A stretch of 64,000 nt of DNA from contig JAEZXS010000244.1 of assembly GCA_023442755.1 (NCBI GenBank), forward strand, positions 1,801-65,800, written 5' to 3'. Origin of the DNA: Pseudomonadota bacterium. Lineage in GTDB: Bacteria; Desulfobacterota; Syntrophobacteria; Syntrophobacterales; Syntrophobacteraceae. This document shows, piece after piece, positions 21,089 through 62,964 of the stretch; position 1 is the stretch's first letter; each line of letters starts with the position of its first letter. Position numbers and translations under genes: made by a program. The notes under the pieces were generated by a model, which was given only the letters and a program-made list of their open reading frames with translations, was not told the DNA's origin and searched no databases.

Positions 21089-21433
21089 TTGCCGCAATTT
21101 CAGAAAGCATCGGCCCACGTAATTCTCTGACTCATAAGGAGAGAAACCGGTCATGTTCAAGACTATTCTTACTCCCTGATGGGAATTCCCCGTGATGCCT
21201 CCTCGGTAATCTCCAACATTGGGACGGGTTTGACCGGGGCGCTGTTACCCCTTATATCATGTTTAAATGCCTGCCCCCAGCATTGTATTTTAATTGCTTG
21301 TAAATATCTCTTTAGTCTATTTTCACCTTGCATGAGAAATCCAGTAAACGAATTAAGAGGTGAGCTGGCCGACGCTGTCGACCGGTTCTGATGGTGTAAA
21401 GGTCGAAACGTATATAAAGCTGAAAGGTGATTG

Positions 21434-22141
21434 ATGGAAGGGCGGAATACTCTTTATTTGTGTGCACCTGTAAATGCTTTGGTCGAGGGTATCTATGAAC
21501 AGAATATCCCGTTCGGCGAAGTGAGAAAGTACGGCGACTTCGGCCTCGGGACGTTTGACTGCCTCGACGGCGAGATGGTCATGCTCGACGGGACCGTGTA
21601 CCAGATCGCATCGGACGGCCGGGTTCGACGGATCGAGGGCGAGGCGGGGACCCCTTTCAGCTGCGTCACCTTCTACCAGCCGTTCAGCCATGAAGATTTG
21701 AACGCCCACATGGCTTACGACGAATTCCTCGCATGGCTCCAAAGCCTGCTGCCCTCTCCGAACCTGTGCTACGCGCTGAGAATTGAAGGCATATTCGACT
21801 CCGTTGCCGTGCGCTCGGTGCCGAAACAGGAGAGCTACCGGCCTCTTGTGGAAGTCGCCGCGGAGCAGCCCGTATTCCGGTTCTCGAAAATCGAAGGGAC
21901 ACTGGCGGGTTTTTTCACCCCTTCGTTCCTGGGATCGCTGAACGTGCCCGGCCTGCACCTCCATTTTCTTTCCGCGGACTTGAACCATGGCGGGCATCTT
22001 CTGACCTGCGAGCCCTCCCGGGTACGTGTGGGAGTGCAGATACTCAGCCGCGTGGAGCTGGCCTTGCCCATGAGCCTCGATTATCTCACGTGGGACTTCA
22101 GGCGCGACACCGAGCGGGACCTGCACAAAGCGGAAAAGTGA
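21434..22141 (+). CDS. alsD: Alpha-acetolactate decarboxylase
   Basis: LYLCAPVNALVEGIYEQNIPFGEVRKYGDFGLGTFDCLDGEMVMLDGTVYQI is a typical AlsD/BudA N-terminus, and the length is as expected. Confidence 0.85.
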   Translation: MEGRNTLYLCAPVNALVEGIYEQNIPFGEVRKYGDFGLGTFDCLDGEMVMLDGTVYQIASDGRVRRIEGEAGTPFSCVTFYQPFSHEDLNAHMAYDEFLAWLQSLLPSPNLCYALRIEGIFDSVAVRSVPKQESYRPLVEVAAEQPVFRFSKIEGTLAGFFTPSFLGSLNVPGLHLHFLSADLNHGGHLLTCEPSRVRVGVQILSRVELALPMSLDYLTWDFRRDTERDLHKAEK

Positions 22142-22344
22142 TTTGGCGCCGCCATGCCTTGAACAAGGGAGGCTAACCTTGGAATAAGGGAACTGACCTC
22201 TGAAATCTTTGGTCTTTGATCGGGAGAAGCCGGAGAGCGGATCGGTGAGGACCAGCGCCTGCGGGAGGGAGACGGAAGATCGGAAGTTAAAGGCTTCGCC
22301 TCCCGATCTCCCATCATCCGACAAATTGCATTCACAGTATCCGG

Positions 22345-22590
22345 CTAATAATTGCAGATTTTGCACTGGGAATAGGGGCCGCAGCATTCATCCTTGAATG
22401 CTTTGGTGGGACTGAACTCCGCCGAGCCGAGAATCATGTTGACCGGAACTATTTTCCCGACCTTGGCCGTTATGCCCGGCTTCGTGGCTTCGGCCGGCGC
22501 CGGCGTTGACGCCGGGGCCTTGGCCGTCACGCCAGACAAGGCTATCGCAGCCGATACGGCGACTGTTGCAAGCATTTCCTTCTTCTTCAT
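22345..22590 (-). CDS. Small Cys-rich protein with a signal-peptide-like N-terminus; candidate substrate of the adjacent radical SAM enzyme
   Basis: GGGAGGTGA lies 7 nt before the ATG at 22590. Product: MKKKEMLATVAVSAAIALSGVTAKA/PASTPAPAEATKPGITAKVGKIVPVNMILGSAEFSPTKAFKDECCGPYSQCKICNY. It starts 24 nt after the rSAM stop. Confidence 0.6.
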   Translation of the reverse strand: MKKKEMLATVAVSAAIALSGVTAKAPASTPAPAEATKPGITAKVGKIVPVNMILGSAEFSPTKAFKDECCGPYSQCKICNY

Positions 22591-22614
22591 CGTGCTCACC
22601 TCCCTTCCGTTCTG

Positions 22615-23994
22615 TCAGTTATCACCGTCCTTTTTCACCTGCTGTTCCAGGAAAAAGGCCTTCAAGGTCTGGGCGATGAATTCCTTGTTTTGATGGCAGT
22701 AGGACTTGAAGATGGAACCCTTGTGGAGCCTTGCGTGGCAGGGACATCCGCCGCCGCAGTAAAGCGCTGCCGAACACCCAAGGCATTCGGGGACTCGAAG
22801 GAGATGGCGCCTCGAGTACTTTTCCTGCAAGGCGAAAAACTTCACCTTTCCGCCGGAGAAAGTGCCTATACGCAGATGTTTGTGGCCGGCTTCCTCGTAG
22901 CACTGGTAGATATCGCCCAGCGGGTCGATTACATAGAAAATTTCGGTGCCCAGTCCGCAGTGCCTCACCCTGGGAAGCATCCTTTCCGTCTGCATCCGGA
23001 GAAAGCCCTTCATGATATCGTAGTTGGAAGGAGGGCGGTGCGTCCGGGCGGCAACCGTCTGAAAGAGGCCGCGAAACAAGGCCATGTCCTCGCTGGAGCT
23101 GGTCTCGCAGGTAAACGTGTTGAGAGGGGCAAAATAGACGCCGACCTGTGGATGCCCGAGTATCTTTTCCTCCTCGAGGTACTCGACGAGCTTCCGTGAG
23201 GATTCCAGGCCGCCGGGATGTACGTGCATGCGGATTACCACGTGCGCCTTCGCCTGGATTATGCGGCGGACGGCGGAGATCATGGCTTCGAAGGTGGGTT
23301 TGCCCGACCGCGGCACCCTGTTTTTATCGTGAAGCTGCGGGTCTCCGTCCAGGGTCACCTGGATGCTTTGAATCTTTCCTTTTTCCGGGCCGATCAAATC
23401 CGTCATTTCCGGCAGCGTGGTAGCATTGGTCGCAACGGATACCCTGATCTTCGGGTGCTTCGCCGTGTAGGCGAGAATCCGTGAAATCGCCTCCCTGTTT
23501 CCGGGAAGCAGAGGTTCTCCGCCAAAAAGGGTGAAAGTGAAGTCCTTGGGAATCTTGGGAAAAAGCTGGGGAAGGTATGTGGAAAAAAGGCCGTCCACAA
23601 ATTCCGGGCTCATGGGCGCCGGCGCCTTGAAGCCCTCGCCCAGGGATTTCTGGTAGCAATAACTGCAGGAGAGATTGCAGCTATACGTCATGATGAAGCT
23701 GAGATTGCCCGATGCGCGCTTCTTATCGGACTTGTTGTTCTTTTCGAGAATGAGCTGGACGAGCTTTTTGAACTCCTCGAGTTCACGTTTGGGAGTCAGG
23801 GCAGTGAGATACCCGCGTTTTACGAGGTGCTCCATTTCTTCCGGCGAAAGAAAAGACAGATCGGCGCCATCGGCCAAAAGATCAGCATATTTGGTCGGAA
23901 CGAGATCGATGCACTGCGTCGATCCGCTGTACAGCAGCGAAGTCCCGTCTCCGATTTCGACATGGTTGAAGTAGTTGCTGGTTCGCAGCTTCAT
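22615..23994 (-). CDS. Radical SAM enzyme with a C-terminal SPASM domain (peptide-maturase-like)
   Basis: CNLSCSYC (CxxxCxxC). SPASM pattern RHCGLG...GDIYQC...CLGCSAALYCGGGCPC...C. N-terminus MKLRTSNYFNHVEIGDGTSLLYSG is typical of rSAM peptide maturases. I chose the start at M42 of the tracked ORF. Confidence 0.8.
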   Translation of the reverse strand: MKLRTSNYFNHVEIGDGTSLLYSGSTQCIDLVPTKYADLLADGADLSFLSPEEMEHLVKRGYLTALTPKRELEEFKKLVQLILEKNNKSDKKRASGNLSFIMTYSCNLSCSYCYQKSLGEGFKAPAPMSPEFVDGLFSTYLPQLFPKIPKDFTFTLFGGEPLLPGNREAISRILAYTAKHPKIRVSVATNATTLPEMTDLIGPEKGKIQSIQVTLDGDPQLHDKNRVPRSGKPTFEAMISAVRRIIQAKAHVVIRMHVHPGGLESSRKLVEYLEEEKILGHPQVGVYFAPLNTFTCETSSSEDMALFRGLFQTVAARTHRPPSNYDIMKGFLRMQTERMLPRVRHCGLGTEIFYVIDPLGDIYQCYEEAGHKHLRIGTFSGGKVKFFALQEKYSRRHLLRVPECLGCSAALYCGGGCPCHARLHKGSIFKSYCHQNKEFIAQTLKAFFLEQQVKKDGDN

Positions 23995-24380
23995 CCGGAT
24001 TATTTGTGCCTCGATGTCGTGCGTTGATCTTTCCCCGGCCGGGAAACTGCCGGGGCAAAAGCATTGTCTGTCGAACCCGCAGGCGTCTCGAAAAGCAGCA
24101 TCAGATGCAGGCGCCAAAGAGAAGAGATCGTCAGGCGGCCTCGATCGGACCGGCTCGCATGTGTCGATTGAACTTGGAATGGTGTTCGACTATACCACGA
24201 ATCCAATCCGAGTAGAACGATTCTCGTGCCCCGGCTCCCGGCTATAGATGGATATCGGGTTACAATGCCCTGCCGTTGCGGCGGTCGAATTCGATTGCGA
24301 AATACAGGCATCCTGCTACCCTGCGTGACTGCAGCAGGCTGATATATCAGACATATCTTGGAAACAGGGGGGATAATCCT

Positions 24381-25931
24381 ATGAGGACGGGCGCTTTCAG
24401 CCTTGTTGAAACCGCTATGCGTGCGGGCGTGGAAGTGTGCTTCGCAAATCCCGGTACGACCGAAATGCCTCTTGTCATGGCGTTGGACAGCGTGCCCGGA
24501 ATGCGTGTCGTACTCGGACTGTTCGAAGGCGTTTGCACCGGCGCGGCCGACGGGTGGGCGCGTATGACGGGCAGGCCTGCTGCGACGCTTCTGCATCTCG
24601 GGCCAGGTTTTGCCAACGGGATTGCAAACCTGCATAACGCTCGGCGCGCCAGGACACCCGTCGTCAACTGGATCGGCAATCACGCCACGCGGCACATTGC
24701 GCTGGATGCCCCGCTCACCTCGGACATCGCGGCGCTCGCCGGCTCCGTCGGGTGGACGCGCTCCGTCGAATCGGCGGGCGAAATGGCAGAGGCAAGCCTT
24801 GCTGCAGTGGAAGCGGCTCTCGGACCTCCGGGGCGCGTGGCGTCCCTGATCCTTCCCGCCGACTGCCAGTGGGAAGAGGGCCCCGAGCCGCTCTCCGTTG
24901 TTCCGTCGCCCTCGGCGCCGGATATCCCGAACCAGGCTCCCCGGGAGGCGGCCCGTTTGCTGGCAAAGCCAGGCGGGGGGATTCTGATCGGGGGAAATGC
25001 CCTTACGGAGCGGGGTCTGAAGGCCGCGGCGCGGGTGGCGGCTGCAACAAATTGCGGCGTCTGGATCGAGACCTTCCCGTCGCGCATCGAGCGCGGCCGT
25101 CACGTACCGGGCTTTCCCCTCCTGCCCTATTTCCCGGAACAGGCCCTCGAAGCGCTTAAGGACATTTCGGCTCTTGTGCTTGTTGGAGCGCGCGAACCGG
25201 TCGGCTTCTTCGCCTATCCGGATCAGCCCTCCCGGTTCGCACCGGCTGGCGCGGCACTGTATACGCTTGCGGACCCCGATGCGGGCGTTGACGCAACGCT
25301 CGCTCTCGAAGCGCTCGCAGATGAATTGAATGCGCCGGCGGCTACCATTGCCCCGCAACCCGGGCAGGCGTTCGCGCCCGGCGGACAGGCGCTCGATCCC
25401 GACATCTGGGGACGAACGATGGCCGCGTTCATCCCGGAAAATGCGATCGTGGTAAACGAGGCGGTTACGACCGGCCTTTACTGGAGTGCGGTACATTCCC
25501 GCAACGCCGCTCCGCATACCATGCTCTGGATCACGGGCGGTGCGATCGGACAGGGGCTGCCCAACGCGCTCGGAGCGGCGCTGGCATGCCCCGACCGGCG
25601 CGTGATCGCGCTGCAGGCGGACGGGAGCGGGCTTTATACGCTGCAGGCGCTCTGGTCGATGGCTCGCGAGGGGGCGGATGTGATCGTGGTGGTTTGCGCG
25701 AACCGCCGCTACCGCATCCTGCAGGCCGAGCTTGCACGAATTACCGAGAAACCCGGCCCAAAGGCGCAGTACCTGACGGATCTCTCCGGGCCGGCGATAG
25801 ACTGGGCCGCCCTGGCAAAAGGGTTTGGCGTTCCGGGCTGCACCGTCCACACCGATGCCGCCCTGGCCGATGCGCTCACCCGCGCCCTGGCCGACCGCGG
25901 CCCGAGCCTTATCGAAGCGGTACTGGCCTGA
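24381..25931 (+). CDS. Thiamine-pyrophosphate enzyme, acetolactate synthase large-subunit-like
   Basis: VEVCFANPGTTEMPLV...GPGFANGIANLHNARRARTPVV. AGGGGGG lies before the ATG at 24381. No small subunit is adjacent. Confidence 0.75.
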   Translation: MRTGAFSLVETAMRAGVEVCFANPGTTEMPLVMALDSVPGMRVVLGLFEGVCTGAADGWARMTGRPAATLLHLGPGFANGIANLHNARRARTPVVNWIGNHATRHIALDAPLTSDIAALAGSVGWTRSVESAGEMAEASLAAVEAALGPPGRVASLILPADCQWEEGPEPLSVVPSPSAPDIPNQAPREAARLLAKPGGGILIGGNALTERGLKAAARVAAATNCGVWIETFPSRIERGRHVPGFPLLPYFPEQALEALKDISALVLVGAREPVGFFAYPDQPSRFAPAGAALYTLADPDAGVDATLALEALADELNAPAATIAPQPGQAFAPGGQALDPDIWGRTMAAFIPENAIVVNEAVTTGLYWSAVHSRNAAPHTMLWITGGAIGQGLPNALGAALACPDRRVIALQADGSGLYTLQALWSMAREGADVIVVVCANRRYRILQAELARITEKPGPKAQYLTDLSGPAIDWAALAKGFGVPGCTVHTDAALADALTRALADRGPSLIEAVLA

Positions 25932-28094: not shown

Positions 28095-28483
28095 TTGCTT
28101 TCCCTCCATTCCGAAGCGACACTCTTCCGTAAGACGGTTACCGGTTAAGATACTGCGGCCCGAACTGCGGGTGGGACATGAATTCTCCAGTCTTAGACTC
28201 TAGTCGGTAAGGAAGGCTGAAAACTAAAAACTTAACGGACCTATAATCATTGTTGGATCCTCACCGCCCTTCAGGCACGTTTGTCGTCGCCGCCCTCCCA
28301 TGCGGGCATCCCAAGACTCCGCGGAAGGCGCCTCAGCTCCCGGATACAGCTTCCCGGGATTGAAGAATAATTGCTGGCCCTTTGCCGGCACGGATGATAA
28401 ATAGGCTCGAAATCCCGACAAAAACTGAAGCGCCGGGCAAGGCGCTTGTCATTACGCCATTTAAAGGAGCCGGTTCGGAGTTC

Positions 28484-29389
28484 ATGACGGAAAAAACACC
28501 ACACAAATTGGGAACTTTACTGGTCAGCGGCTTTCTGGGAGCGGGCAAGACCACCTTTATCATGGAGCATGTGAAAACCTCTCAAGGCAGGACGGCGGTC
28601 CTGGTAAACGAGTTCGGCGATCTGGGAGTCGACGGTTCGCTGATCGATTCGAAGAACGGGGTCGATGTCGTGGAGGTGCCCGGCGGGTGCATCTGCTGTG
28701 GCCAGCAGGAAGGTTTGAAGGAAAGCATCCGGACGATTGCCGAAAAGATCAAGCCGGATACGCTTCTGATAGAACCAAGCGGCATTGCCCAGGCCTCGGG
28801 GGTCATAAATGTGCTGGAAGACGAAGTGCTCGCGGATGTTGTCCGGCTCGATGCCGTCATCACCATCGTGGACGCGTCGTCGTTTCTCGAGTTTTCAAAG
28901 CCGGAAACCTTCGGCACCTTCTTCCTCGACCAGGTAACCAACGCCGACCTTATCGTAATCAATAAAACCGACATGGTTTCCCCGGAGGAACTCGAAAAGG
29001 TATCCCGGCGAGTCTCAGTTCTGAATCCTTCCGCGCTGAGCGTGGAAACGACATTCTGCCGGATGGAAAGCCCTCTGCCGTCGGGCAGGACCAAAAAGGT
29101 TTTCTCCATGGGCAGGTTCAGCATCGGGATGGAGTGTTTCAGCATGGTCCCCGGTCAGCCGATTTCCAGGGACCGGCTGGACCAGTTCACCTCTGCCGTC
29201 ATCAAAGGAAGTTTCGGAAGGGTCTATCGGGGCAAAGGGATTTTCCCGAGTCCGGACGGCGGATGGGTCAACCTGCAGATTGTCGGCGAGAATGTGTCCG
29301 TAACACCTTTTTCGGAAGAGGTCCGGCCGCGGCTCACTCTCATCGGCTACGATCTGGACCGGCAGCAGGTCAGCCGGTTTTTGAGCTGA
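28484..29389 (+). CDS. CobW/COG0523-family G3E GTPase (metallochaperone-like)
   Basis: Walker A GFLGAGKTTF, CxCC motif GGCICCG, NKTD. I chose the start MTEKTPH, preceded by AAAGGAG. Confidence 0.8.
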   Translation: MTEKTPHKLGTLLVSGFLGAGKTTFIMEHVKTSQGRTAVLVNEFGDLGVDGSLIDSKNGVDVVEVPGGCICCGQQEGLKESIRTIAEKIKPDTLLIEPSGIAQASGVINVLEDEVLADVVRLDAVITIVDASSFLEFSKPETFGTFFLDQVTNADLIVINKTDMVSPEELEKVSRRVSVLNPSALSVETTFCRMESPLPSGRTKKVFSMGRFSIGMECFSMVPGQPISRDRLDQFTSAVIKGSFGRVYRGKGIFPSPDGGWVNLQIVGENVSVTPFSEEVRPRLTLIGYDLDRQQVSRFLS

Positions 29390-62837: not shown

Positions 62838-62870
62838 CAGAAAAAGCAAATCGAAAAACCCTTTTCTTAA

Positions 62871-62950
62871 GCCATTTCCCTACGCTGGCATTGTCCAGAT
62901 CAGGTATTAAGGGTTTCTTCTCAGTCCTGCCTCGACAGGACACCCCTAAC
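62871..62950 (-). promoter_or_regulatory. TPP (THI-box) riboswitch aptamer
   Basis: The minus strand reads GGGGTGTCCTGTCGAGGCAGGACTGAGAAGAAACCCTTAATACCTGATCTGGACAATGCCAGCGTAGGGAA. The conserved CUGAGA and ACCUGAUCUGGAUAAUGCCAGCG blocks are present. It lies upstream of thiF. Confidence 0.9.
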
Positions 62951-62964
62951 GGCTGTCGGCAAAA

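Follow-up and report, generated by a model that had tools for sequence, protein, structure and literature searches.

Does a radical S-adenosylmethionine (SAM) enzyme modify the small cysteine-rich protein that is encoded directly behind it and, if so, by which route would the product leave the cell? The question is raised by two adjacent minus-strand genes in a 64,000-nt stretch of DNA from a bacterium of the Syntrophobacteraceae (assembly GCA_023442755.1, contig JAEZXS010000244.1, positions 1,801 to 65,800), the whole of which we call the window. The longer gene encodes a radical SAM protein with a SPASM domain, the shorter one an 81-aa protein with a signal-like N-terminus and a Cys-rich C-terminal tail. 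The original prediction for this locus, made from the sequence alone, took the pair for a peptide maturase and its substrate, and this main interpretation is supported by the classification of the enzyme, by the co-occurrence of the two genes across genomes and by the conservation of the small open reading frame (ORF). We consider it slightly better than an even chance (probability about 0.55) that the two genes form a self-contained module for a peptide made on the ribosome and modified after translation (RiPP), in which the enzyme would cross-link the Cys-rich tail by thioether bonds and the product would be exported by the Sec pathway.

The enzyme and its partner peptide

The ORF of the enzyme starts with an ATG at position 23994 and ends with a stop codon at 22615-22617 (all features are listed in Table 1). 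A longer ORF with a TTG start extends to 24117; instead, 66 of 66 homologues begin at the MK(N)LR position. Matching the original prediction, the 459-aa protein on the minus strand contains both the CNLSCSYC motif and the full set of SPASM cysteines. In the alignment of the 66 homologues C106, C110 and C113 of the radical SAM motif are invariant, and so are the seven auxiliary-cluster cysteines, whose spacing (C346-x13-G360-x4-C365, C404-x2-C407-x5-C413-x3-C417, C433) completes the canonical SPASM pattern CX9-15GX4C ... CX2CX5CX3C ... C. Scores above the curated cut-offs place the protein in the radical SAM superfamily (PF04055, 52.7 bits versus 29.5; Fer4_12 is the second Pfam match) and in the SPASM subfamily (TIGR04085, 41.3 bits versus 27).

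Altogether 62 NCBIfam families match the enzyme, but every equivalog score lies far under its curated cut-off. The best scores (97-120 bits) belong to radical SAM/SPASM maturases that are paired with small Cys-rich precursors, i.e. CefB (NF038107, 119.7 bits versus a cut-off of 600), PapB (NF047865, 110.5 versus 340), TIGR04463 (107 versus 525) and the geopeptide maturase (TIGR04280, 97 versus 400). They are followed by the SCIFF maturase (TIGR03974, 84.5 versus 425), by QhpD (TIGR03906, 76 versus 453) and by the anaerobic sulfatase-maturating enzyme (anSME; TIGR03942, 72.8 versus 349). Profile hidden Markov model (HMM) classification, which the original prediction had named among its checks, thus ranks peptide maturases best, with CteB leading among the structures in the PDB, and anSME clearly weaker. 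As the best score amounts to 120 bits against a cut-off of 600, homology cannot assign the chemistry of the enzyme.

A structural model (AlphaFold2, AF2) calculated from the 66 homologues reached a predicted local distance difference test (pLDDT) score of 89, the radical SAM barrel included. The closest solved structure is that of CteB, as found with phmmer (5.6e-16), with the family profile (1.4e-28) and with a Foldseek search of the AF2 model (E 3e-17), in the last case along the entire length of the protein, N-terminal domain included. AnSME (1.7e-14), TigE and SuiB rank after CteB in Foldseek, and the anSME alignments begin only at residue 104 of the enzyme. In the profile alignment the enzyme family has a gap at the second cysteine of the auxiliary cluster I (AuxI) of anSME, the same as CteB. 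In the CteB structure AuxI has an open iron site, which is occupied by a substrate cysteine.

The N-terminal domain of the model resembles a RiPP recognition element (RRE). Its secondary structure elements (strands 9-15, 18-23 and 29-33, helices 34-42 and 51-60; pLDDT 90 when modelled alone) are followed by a long linker helix comprising residues 68-95. Foldseek matches of this domain are weak (E 6e-3 to 0.4), and nearly all of them are RREs: TbiB1, the N-terminus of TigE, LynD/TruD, CteB, McbB and lasso B1 proteins. In addition, the profile aligns residues 4-196 of the enzyme to residues 7-218 of TigE, a cyclopropyl synthase.

The small ORF follows on the same strand. It starts with an ATG at 22590, begins MKKKEMLATV and terminates in DECCGPYSQCKICNY. 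The prediction that the radical SAM gene stops 24 nt ahead of an 81-codon ORF with a Shine-Dalgarno sequence was confirmed, the spacer containing GGGAGGTG; we found no terminator-like site between the two genes. The short spacer and the Shine-Dalgarno sequence imply that the precursor is probably co-transcribed with the enzyme gene and translated. Comparison with the orthologue at locus L001 argues in the same direction: within the last 39 codons 13 of the codon changes are synonymous and 5 are non-synonymous, and third positions account for 13 of the 19 base differences, an excess of synonymous changes that points to purifying selection on a translated gene. A collection of 15 billion proteins lacks this exact 81-aa product but contains the enzyme of the window, on a 66-kb contig, so that gene calling for the source assembly probably overlooked the small ORF.

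How tightly are the two genes coupled elsewhere? A large protein collection yielded 953 homologues of the enzyme, the best 120 of which are at least ~49% identical to it. Eight genome loci encode a full-length homologue (55-80% identity), and in all eight the enzyme gene adjoins a small ORF with VGxIxP[VI]N and a CCGP core, located downstream of it in five loci and upstream in three. These loci are labelled Syntrophaceae, Smithellaceae, Oligoflexia, Negativicutes, Bacillota, Planctomycetota, unclassified deltaproteobacterium and unclassified bacterium. The same pairing is found in Geobacteraceae and other assembly loci (L011, L014, L015, L017, L019, L021, L022 and L106). In fact, every readable locus of a full-length homologue carries a small Cys-rich neighbour ORF, across at least seven lineages, just as expected from the original prediction. 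The genes flanking the pair in the window are found beside it at no other locus, L001 with its 80% identity included; thus the conserved unit is the pair alone. Among 80 distant radical SAM loci (<=34% identity) there was no neighbour with CCGP or VGxIxPxN. These 80 loci came from a scan of metagenome contigs with the enzyme alignment, which matched generic radical SAM patterns, and they serve as a negative control only.

In all we found 111 related small proteins, which, together with the codon changes relative to L001, bears out the claim that the small ORF is conserved and translated. A profile search of a word-indexed collection returned 97 precursor clusters, all of them labelled hypothetical and none with a Pfam domain, and an exhaustive HMM search of 1.84 billion representatives returned 30 precursors only. 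The family is therefore rare, yet phylogenetically wide. Among the NCBIfam models (E up to 0.1) the sole match of the window precursor is a weak one, to the N-terminus of an OmpA-family lipoprotein (E 0.018), and there is no match to a partner-peptide model; taken together, no curated family of NCBIfam or Pfam covers either the enzyme or the precursor.

The precursors are built from four parts. The first, present in 83 of 98 members, consists of MK(K/T/S)(K/R) and a hydrophobic stretch of 16-22 residues. It is followed by an optional low-complexity linker, which is poorly conserved and is missing in a subgroup of short precursors. The third part is an invariant V/I-G-x-I-x-P-x-N, followed by L and ~15-20 residues. 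This is the most conserved part of the peptide: G45, I47, P49 and N51 are invariant in 40 diverse precursors, including members without signal and members with a different core. VGxIxPxN, which the original prediction had overlooked, is probably the true leader element and the best candidate for recognition by the RRE. The fourth part is a Cys-rich core, usually (D/E)CCGP(Y/H)xQ with one or two further cysteines and a clade-specific tail (CKICNY in the clade of the window; PCPEFKG, CQCPSFKG or KCCPQFVGG elsewhere). The precursor alignment shows at least 90% conservation of CCGP and no exchange of C70; the cysteine spacing in the window core is 1, 6, 3. The core has a conserved aromatic-x-Gln triplet (PYSQ, PYAQ, PYHQ); some members have CCGPQ instead. 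A second type of core, CNxYxCSCLCGVRG, lacks the triplet; the leader motif in front of it is unchanged, and the enzyme that goes with it shares 62% identity with that of the window. A constant leader combined with variable cores is the classic RiPP pattern, and the general hallmarks of a RiPP cluster, namely a linked small precursor gene, a conserved leader and a variable core, are all present.

Single members depart from this plan. Two of them are the homologues P0222 and P0226 (loci L103, L106). In P0222 two tandem ECCGPYHQ cores follow one leader, and in P0226 the leader motif GVIPIN is present twice; both have Lys/Arg-rich N-termini without the hydrophobic stretch. At L014 (5618-7934, plus strand) a 661-aa radical SAM protein precedes a precursor of the CSCLCGVRG type. 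It shows a weak match to the B12-binding domain PF02310 (20.2 bits, under the Pfam cut-off of 32.1), which would suggest further tailoring, possibly methylation, in this sub-family.

The N-terminus and the route of export

According to the original prediction, the substrate carries what looks like an export signal instead of a classical leader. The first half of this claim stood up and the second did not: a signal-like N-terminus is present, but the peptide is not leaderless, since the invariant VGxIxPxN precedes the core. The window peptide reaches a 12-residue Kyte-Doolittle maximum of 2.33, with a net charge of +2 before it and an uncharged run of 18 residues after that. The hydrophobic (h-) region comprises 16 residues, and a simple in-house scoring gave ALS↓G and VTA↓K as candidate signal-peptidase sites. 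Cleavage between AKA and PAS, as predicted originally, is unlikely. This site has a Pro at +1, which blocks cleavage by signal peptidase I, and VTA↓KA fits the -3/-1 rule better. A lipoprotein reading of the precursor was rejected as well: the OmpA-lipoprotein match reflects the signal-like N-terminus only, and there is no lipobox because no Cys lies within or after the h-region.

Within the family, the precursors with a long linker, among them that of the window, have an h-region of ~16 residues and sites following the -3/-1 rule, such as VTA↓K, AAA↓K and AMA↓A. The short subgroup has at best a weak TxA↓VMV site, or none, and its hydrophobic stretch may serve to anchor the peptide in the membrane or may belong to the leader. 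A minority of precursors carry a short, Lys-rich, hydrophilic N-terminus in place of the hydrophobic stretch. Because these signal-less members keep both leader motif and core, the hydrophobic N-terminus is dispensable for recognition.

The signal-less precursors also differ in their surroundings. Three of their five loci (L017, L019 and L021) have an exporter of the ATP-binding cassette (ABC) type, with ABC_membrane and ABC_tran domains, within 1 kb, as opposed to none of the 11 signal-bearing loci (Fisher exact p ~0.02). This count was made without P0222, P0230, P0228 and P0226, whose contigs of 0.3-2 kb are too short to reveal an exporter. The three exporters are homologous to each other over their full length. 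That an exporter replaces the signal in signal-less loci would be expected if the N-terminus does the job of export. The hydrophobic N-terminus and the dedicated exporter thus look like alternative exits, which is comparative support for Sec export of the signal-bearing members.

At L017 (3537-9244, plus strand), one of the signal-less loci, an 858-aa ABC exporter with two nucleotide-binding domains, a protein binding cyclic nucleotide monophosphates, the radical SAM enzyme and the precursor form an apparent operon. It ends with a 307-aa protein without Pfam domain and is followed by a CHASE2-guanylate cyclase. These neighbours hint at a regulation linked to cyclic nucleotides.

According to the papers on bufferins, it is highly unusual for the precursor of a bacterial RiPP to carry a Sec signal, and use of Sec has been demonstrated experimentally for bufferins alone (PMC11626156, PMC12452194).

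Mechanism, alternatives and known relatives

For the pair in the window we infer the following course of events. The 81-aa precursor would be translated in the cytoplasm, where the RRE-like domain of the enzyme would bind VGxIxPxN, probably as an added beta-strand. After reductive cleavage of SAM, the 5'-deoxyadenosyl radical would abstract a hydrogen atom in the core ECCGPYSQCKICNY, with a substrate cysteine presumably bound at the open AuxI iron site, as in CteB. The likeliest product would be one or more intramolecular Cys-to-carbon thioethers of the sactionine or ranthionine type; thioethers are favoured because of the nearest relatives of the enzyme and because of the invariant cysteines. 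The MKKK and hydrophobic N-terminus would then direct the modified peptide post-translationally into the general Sec pathway and would be removed by signal peptidase I, probably at VTA↓KA, so that neither a dedicated exporter nor a leader protease would be needed. As no leader protease is encoded, the product would keep the recognition motif; it would be a ~57-aa peptide, cross-linked in its tail and located either in the periplasm or extracellularly. For its function we can offer a guess, namely metal binding or signalling in the periplasm, which is reasonable given that most source lineages are anaerobes and diderms.

Several observations weigh against such a module, some on the side of the chemistry and some on the side of export. 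As to the chemistry, no equivalog cut-off is reached, SPASM relatives are known that make C-C cyclophanes, cyclopropyl groups or formylglycine, Pfam PqqD finds no match in the enzyme, and the fold matches to RREs are singly weak (best E 6e-3). The same enzyme and substrate could be engaged in chemistry other than thioether formation, i.e. a C-C link, a cyclopropyl group, an epimerisation or another modification of Cys. An example of a C-C link would be a Tyr/His-x-Gln cyclophane on (Y/H)xQ. In such cases the cysteines would form disulfides or bind metal once the peptide has been exported. Indeed, the triplet in PYSQ, PYAQ and PYHQ resembles the three-residue cyclophane motif, cyclophane-forming families are among the NCBIfam matches of the enzyme (YhhB 74 bits, FxsB 45, GrrM 38), and the match to TigE, both in fold and in profile, covers the N-terminal domain. 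However, the aromatic residue is not invariant, as the CCGPQ members show, the triplet is lacking altogether from the second type of core, and the cysteines are the most conserved core residues. Furthermore, Cys-rich peptides are the substrates of all top-scoring relatives, and the structure that matches best belongs to a thioether synthase whose AuxI site likewise has three Cys, so that we regard non-thioether chemistry as rather unlikely. It is hardly conceivable that the enzyme is an anSME, or another SPASM enzyme that does not act on peptides, and that the small ORF has nothing to do with it or is spurious. In Foldseek, anSME ranks second among the structural classes, but the 73 bits obtained with TIGR03942 are far under the cut-off of 349, an RRE-like N-terminal domain as in the window enzyme is absent in anSME, no sulfatase is conserved nearby, and the small ORF occurs at every readable locus and is under purifying selection.

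As to export, the most obvious AxA site of the window peptide has a Pro at +1, the hydrophobic stretch of the short subgroup runs into VGxIxPVN without a clear c-region, and a recognition motif that stays on the product is unusual for RiPPs. The exporter correlation comes from 5 versus 11 loci only; no exporter is found at the signal-less loci L015 and L022 (the latter being a short contig), and the signal-bearing loci L006 and L007 have a MacB/FtsX permease and a MatE pump, respectively, beside the pair. If the hydrophobic N-terminus were an uncleaved membrane anchor, holding the modified tail at the membrane surface, or a hydrophobic part of the leader, and the product stayed in the cell, this would suit about half of the family, where a hydrophobic stretch of 20-23 residues is joined directly to the leader motif, lacking a c-region and often without a site that fits the -3/-1 rule; the Pro at the AKA site of the window peptide and the lack of an encoded leader protease would suit it, too. 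We nevertheless think it improbable, as precursors of the long subgroup, that of the window among them, show a normal h-region followed by acceptable cleavage sites, the hydrophobic region is dispensable for recognition, and signal-less members tend to have an ABC exporter. The small protein might also be part of a larger periplasmic enzyme whose genes lie elsewhere, either as a cross-linked subunit like QhpC or as a carrier of the cofactor. QhpD is among the matches of the maturase, the product would retain ~40 residues before the core and would thus be more protein-like than a typical RiPP, and in the mostly diderm taxa a periplasmic location is expected. Yet the QhpD score (76 bits) stays far from the cut-off of 453, no dehydrogenase subunit or other gene is conserved beside the pair at any locus, and the clade-variable cores as well as the duplicated core of P0222 and the duplicated leader motif of P0226 are better suited to a free peptide, which makes a subunit very improbable.

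Compared with known systems, the thioether module proposed here is closest to CteB and its substrate CteA, a SCIFF ranthipeptide (PDB 5WGG/5WHY; TIGR03974), the best match among solved structures in both sequence and fold. CteB (453 aa, versus 459 aa in the window) shares the architecture, with a radical SAM barrel between the RRE-like domain at the N-terminus and the SPASM domain, has seven auxiliary cysteines with an AuxI that lacks the fourth Cys ligand, and acts on a substrate with a Cys-rich C-terminus. The identity, however, is only 17-18% and TIGR03974 remains under its cut-off; SCIFF precursors have ~45 aa and six cysteines and lack a signal-like N-terminus, VGxIxPxN and CCGP. The SCIFF precursor model TIGR03973 finds no match in the window precursor, and the pair is no SCIFF system by these measures. 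PapB with PapA (freyrasin), CefB, TIGR04463 and TIGR04280 similarly combine a radical SAM/SPASM enzyme with a small Cys-rich precursor. PapB precursors have CX3D/E repeats, whereas the window core is without a CX3D repeat, and CefB precursors have a Cys at every fifth residue, in contrast to the spacing of 1, 6, 3 in the window core, so that the pair belongs to neither family.

The proposed logic of export is shared with bufferins and oxazolins, RiPPs made by multinuclear non-haem iron oxidases (MNIOs), which use a Sec-type signal without a dedicated transporter (PMC11626156, PMC12452194). As proposed for the window family, a Cys-containing bufferin precursor is modified in the cytoplasm, and its signal is separable from substrate recognition. 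The bufferin enzyme, however, is an O2-needing MNIO with a DUF2063 partner and not a radical SAM/SPASM protein, and bufferins have no sequence relationship to the window family, which occurs mostly in anaerobe lineages. QhpD and QhpC resemble the proposed module in that a radical SAM/SPASM enzyme places Cys thioethers on a small polypeptide bound for the periplasm. QhpC relies on a special leader, on the ABC exporter QhpF and on the protease QhpE, and its gene lies in an operon of dehydrogenase subunits; neighbours of the qhpA, B, C, E or F type were found neither in the window nor at any other locus, which speaks against a QhpD system. AnSME finally shares the SPASM fold, the action on Cys and substrates with a Sec signal that are modified before export. 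It differs from the window enzyme in lacking an RRE-like domain, in its four Cys ligands of AuxI and in its large sulfatase substrates, and the window enzyme does not group with it.

Genomic surroundings and significance

The features of the pair are summarized in Table 1.

Table 1. Positions of the two genes and of their functional parts within the window
Feature	Position	Strand	Description	Basis
Radical SAM/SPASM peptide maturase gene	22615..23994	-	459 aa; span includes stop codon	ORF and sequence
N-terminal RRE-like domain	23797..23994	-	Residues 1-66; three strands and two helices	AF2
CNLSCSYC motif	23656..23679	-	Residues 106-113; CX3CX2C for the radical SAM [4Fe-4S] cluster	Sequence
SPASM domain	22696..22959	-	Seven invariant auxiliary-cluster Cys: C346, C365, C404, C407, C413, C417, C433	
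Intergenic spacer	22591..22614	-	24 nt, with Shine-Dalgarno GGGAGGTG	Sequence
Precursor peptide gene	22345..22590	-	81 aa; span includes stop codon; MKKKEMLATVAVSAAIALSGVTAKAPASTPAPAEATKPGITAKVGKIVPVNMILGSAEFSPTKAFKDECCGPYSQCKICNY	
Sec-type signal-like N-terminus	22516..22590	-	Residues 1-25: MKKK, hydrophobic stretch MLATVAVSAAIALSGV, TAKA	
Variable Pro/Ala/Thr-rich linker	22465..22515	-	Residues 26-42; poorly conserved	
VGKIVPVN leader motif (VGxIxPxN)	22438..22461	-	Residues 44-51; probable RRE-binding strand	
Core peptide	22348..22392	-	Residues 67-81, DECCGPYSQCKICNY; presumed modification site	

In the window the pair is flanked by the genes for an alpha-acetolactate decarboxylase (PF03306, E 1e-72) and for an enzyme dependent on thiamine pyrophosphate (TPP), both on the plus strand. 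Further neighbours are a YkuD transpeptidase, a methyl-accepting chemotaxis protein, a CobW-family GTPase, a phosphofructokinase and a methyladenine glycosylase. Neither a peptidase nor an ABC exporter nor a separate PqqD gene lies within ~8 kb of the pair, in line with the original prediction, and the sole similarity to an ABC ATPase in the window is at ~47.3-47.9 kb. The prediction also had the pair transcribed opposite to both flanking genes, as if inserted. The orientation is correct, but composition lends no support to an insertion, though the pair does behave like a freely moving unit across genomes: its G+C content of 0.56 equals that of the surroundings, and horizontal insertion was rejected as a reading of the composition, the gene of the TPP-dependent enzyme (24276-25931, plus strand; G+C 0.64-0.68 versus ~0.55 around it) being the local outlier. 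The TPP-enzyme and decarboxylase genes are overlapped on the other strand by long ORFs (24000-25850 and 21353-22387), which look like a side effect of high G+C. Rfam revealed nothing near the pair in the window or in four related loci, and scans for promoters and terminators around it stayed at chance level.

Some other elements deserve mention. The CobW/COG0523-type GTPase (28382-29389, plus strand), a member of a putative metallochaperone family, lies 4.4 kb from the pair; as it is not conserved beside the pair elsewhere, we read no functional link into it. Two further elements are unrelated to the pair: a minus-strand TPP riboswitch (RF00059, 71.9 bits) at 62860-62957, and another radical SAM motif, CTNSCAYC, close to 60983. 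The ORF with this motif, also on the minus strand, presumably encodes a radical SAM enzyme of thiamine biosynthesis. At L003 (7622-9113, plus strand), in a metagenome-assembled genome of the Smithellaceae, a gene for a 134-aa signal-bearing Kunitz/BPTI protein (PF00014, E 1.3e-4) directly follows the pair and overlaps a second, unrelated radical SAM/SPASM gene of 399 aa; judging from this arrangement, the Kunitz/BPTI protein may be another secreted Cys-rich substrate of a radical SAM enzyme. A second cassette shared by L003 and L015 was considered and rejected: the extra small proteins are unrelated, and the extra radical SAM enzymes are only generically similar.

In the literature outside subscription journals we found no description of the family, of a radical SAM family with a Sec signal or of the CCGP motif. 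It is possible, if somewhat short of an even bet, that we are dealing with the first radical SAM RiPP family that has a genuine Sec signal together with a separate leader motif, i.e. with a minimal two-gene pathway, free of a dedicated transporter or protease, in which cross-linking by a strictly anaerobic, cytoplasmic Fe-S enzyme would precede Sec export and in which signal and ABC exporter would have been swapped in evolution. The core CCGP(Y/H)xQ..C might, in addition, represent an undescribed cross-link topology or pairing of residues. Since the small ORF in the window was apparently left uncalled in its source assembly, automated annotation probably under-reports the family. Radical SAM/SPASM maturases are a main source of new peptide chemistry, and here both partners are clearly defined and the pair is conserved across phyla; with two genes and 1.65 kb in total it makes a very small system for heterologous expression. 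The apparent swap of signal peptide and ABC exporter within one family offers a direct handle on the evolution of RiPP export. If it is true that anaerobes possess such a radical SAM counterpart to the bufferins, handing over modified peptides to Sec would be a general strategy that has evolved more than once.

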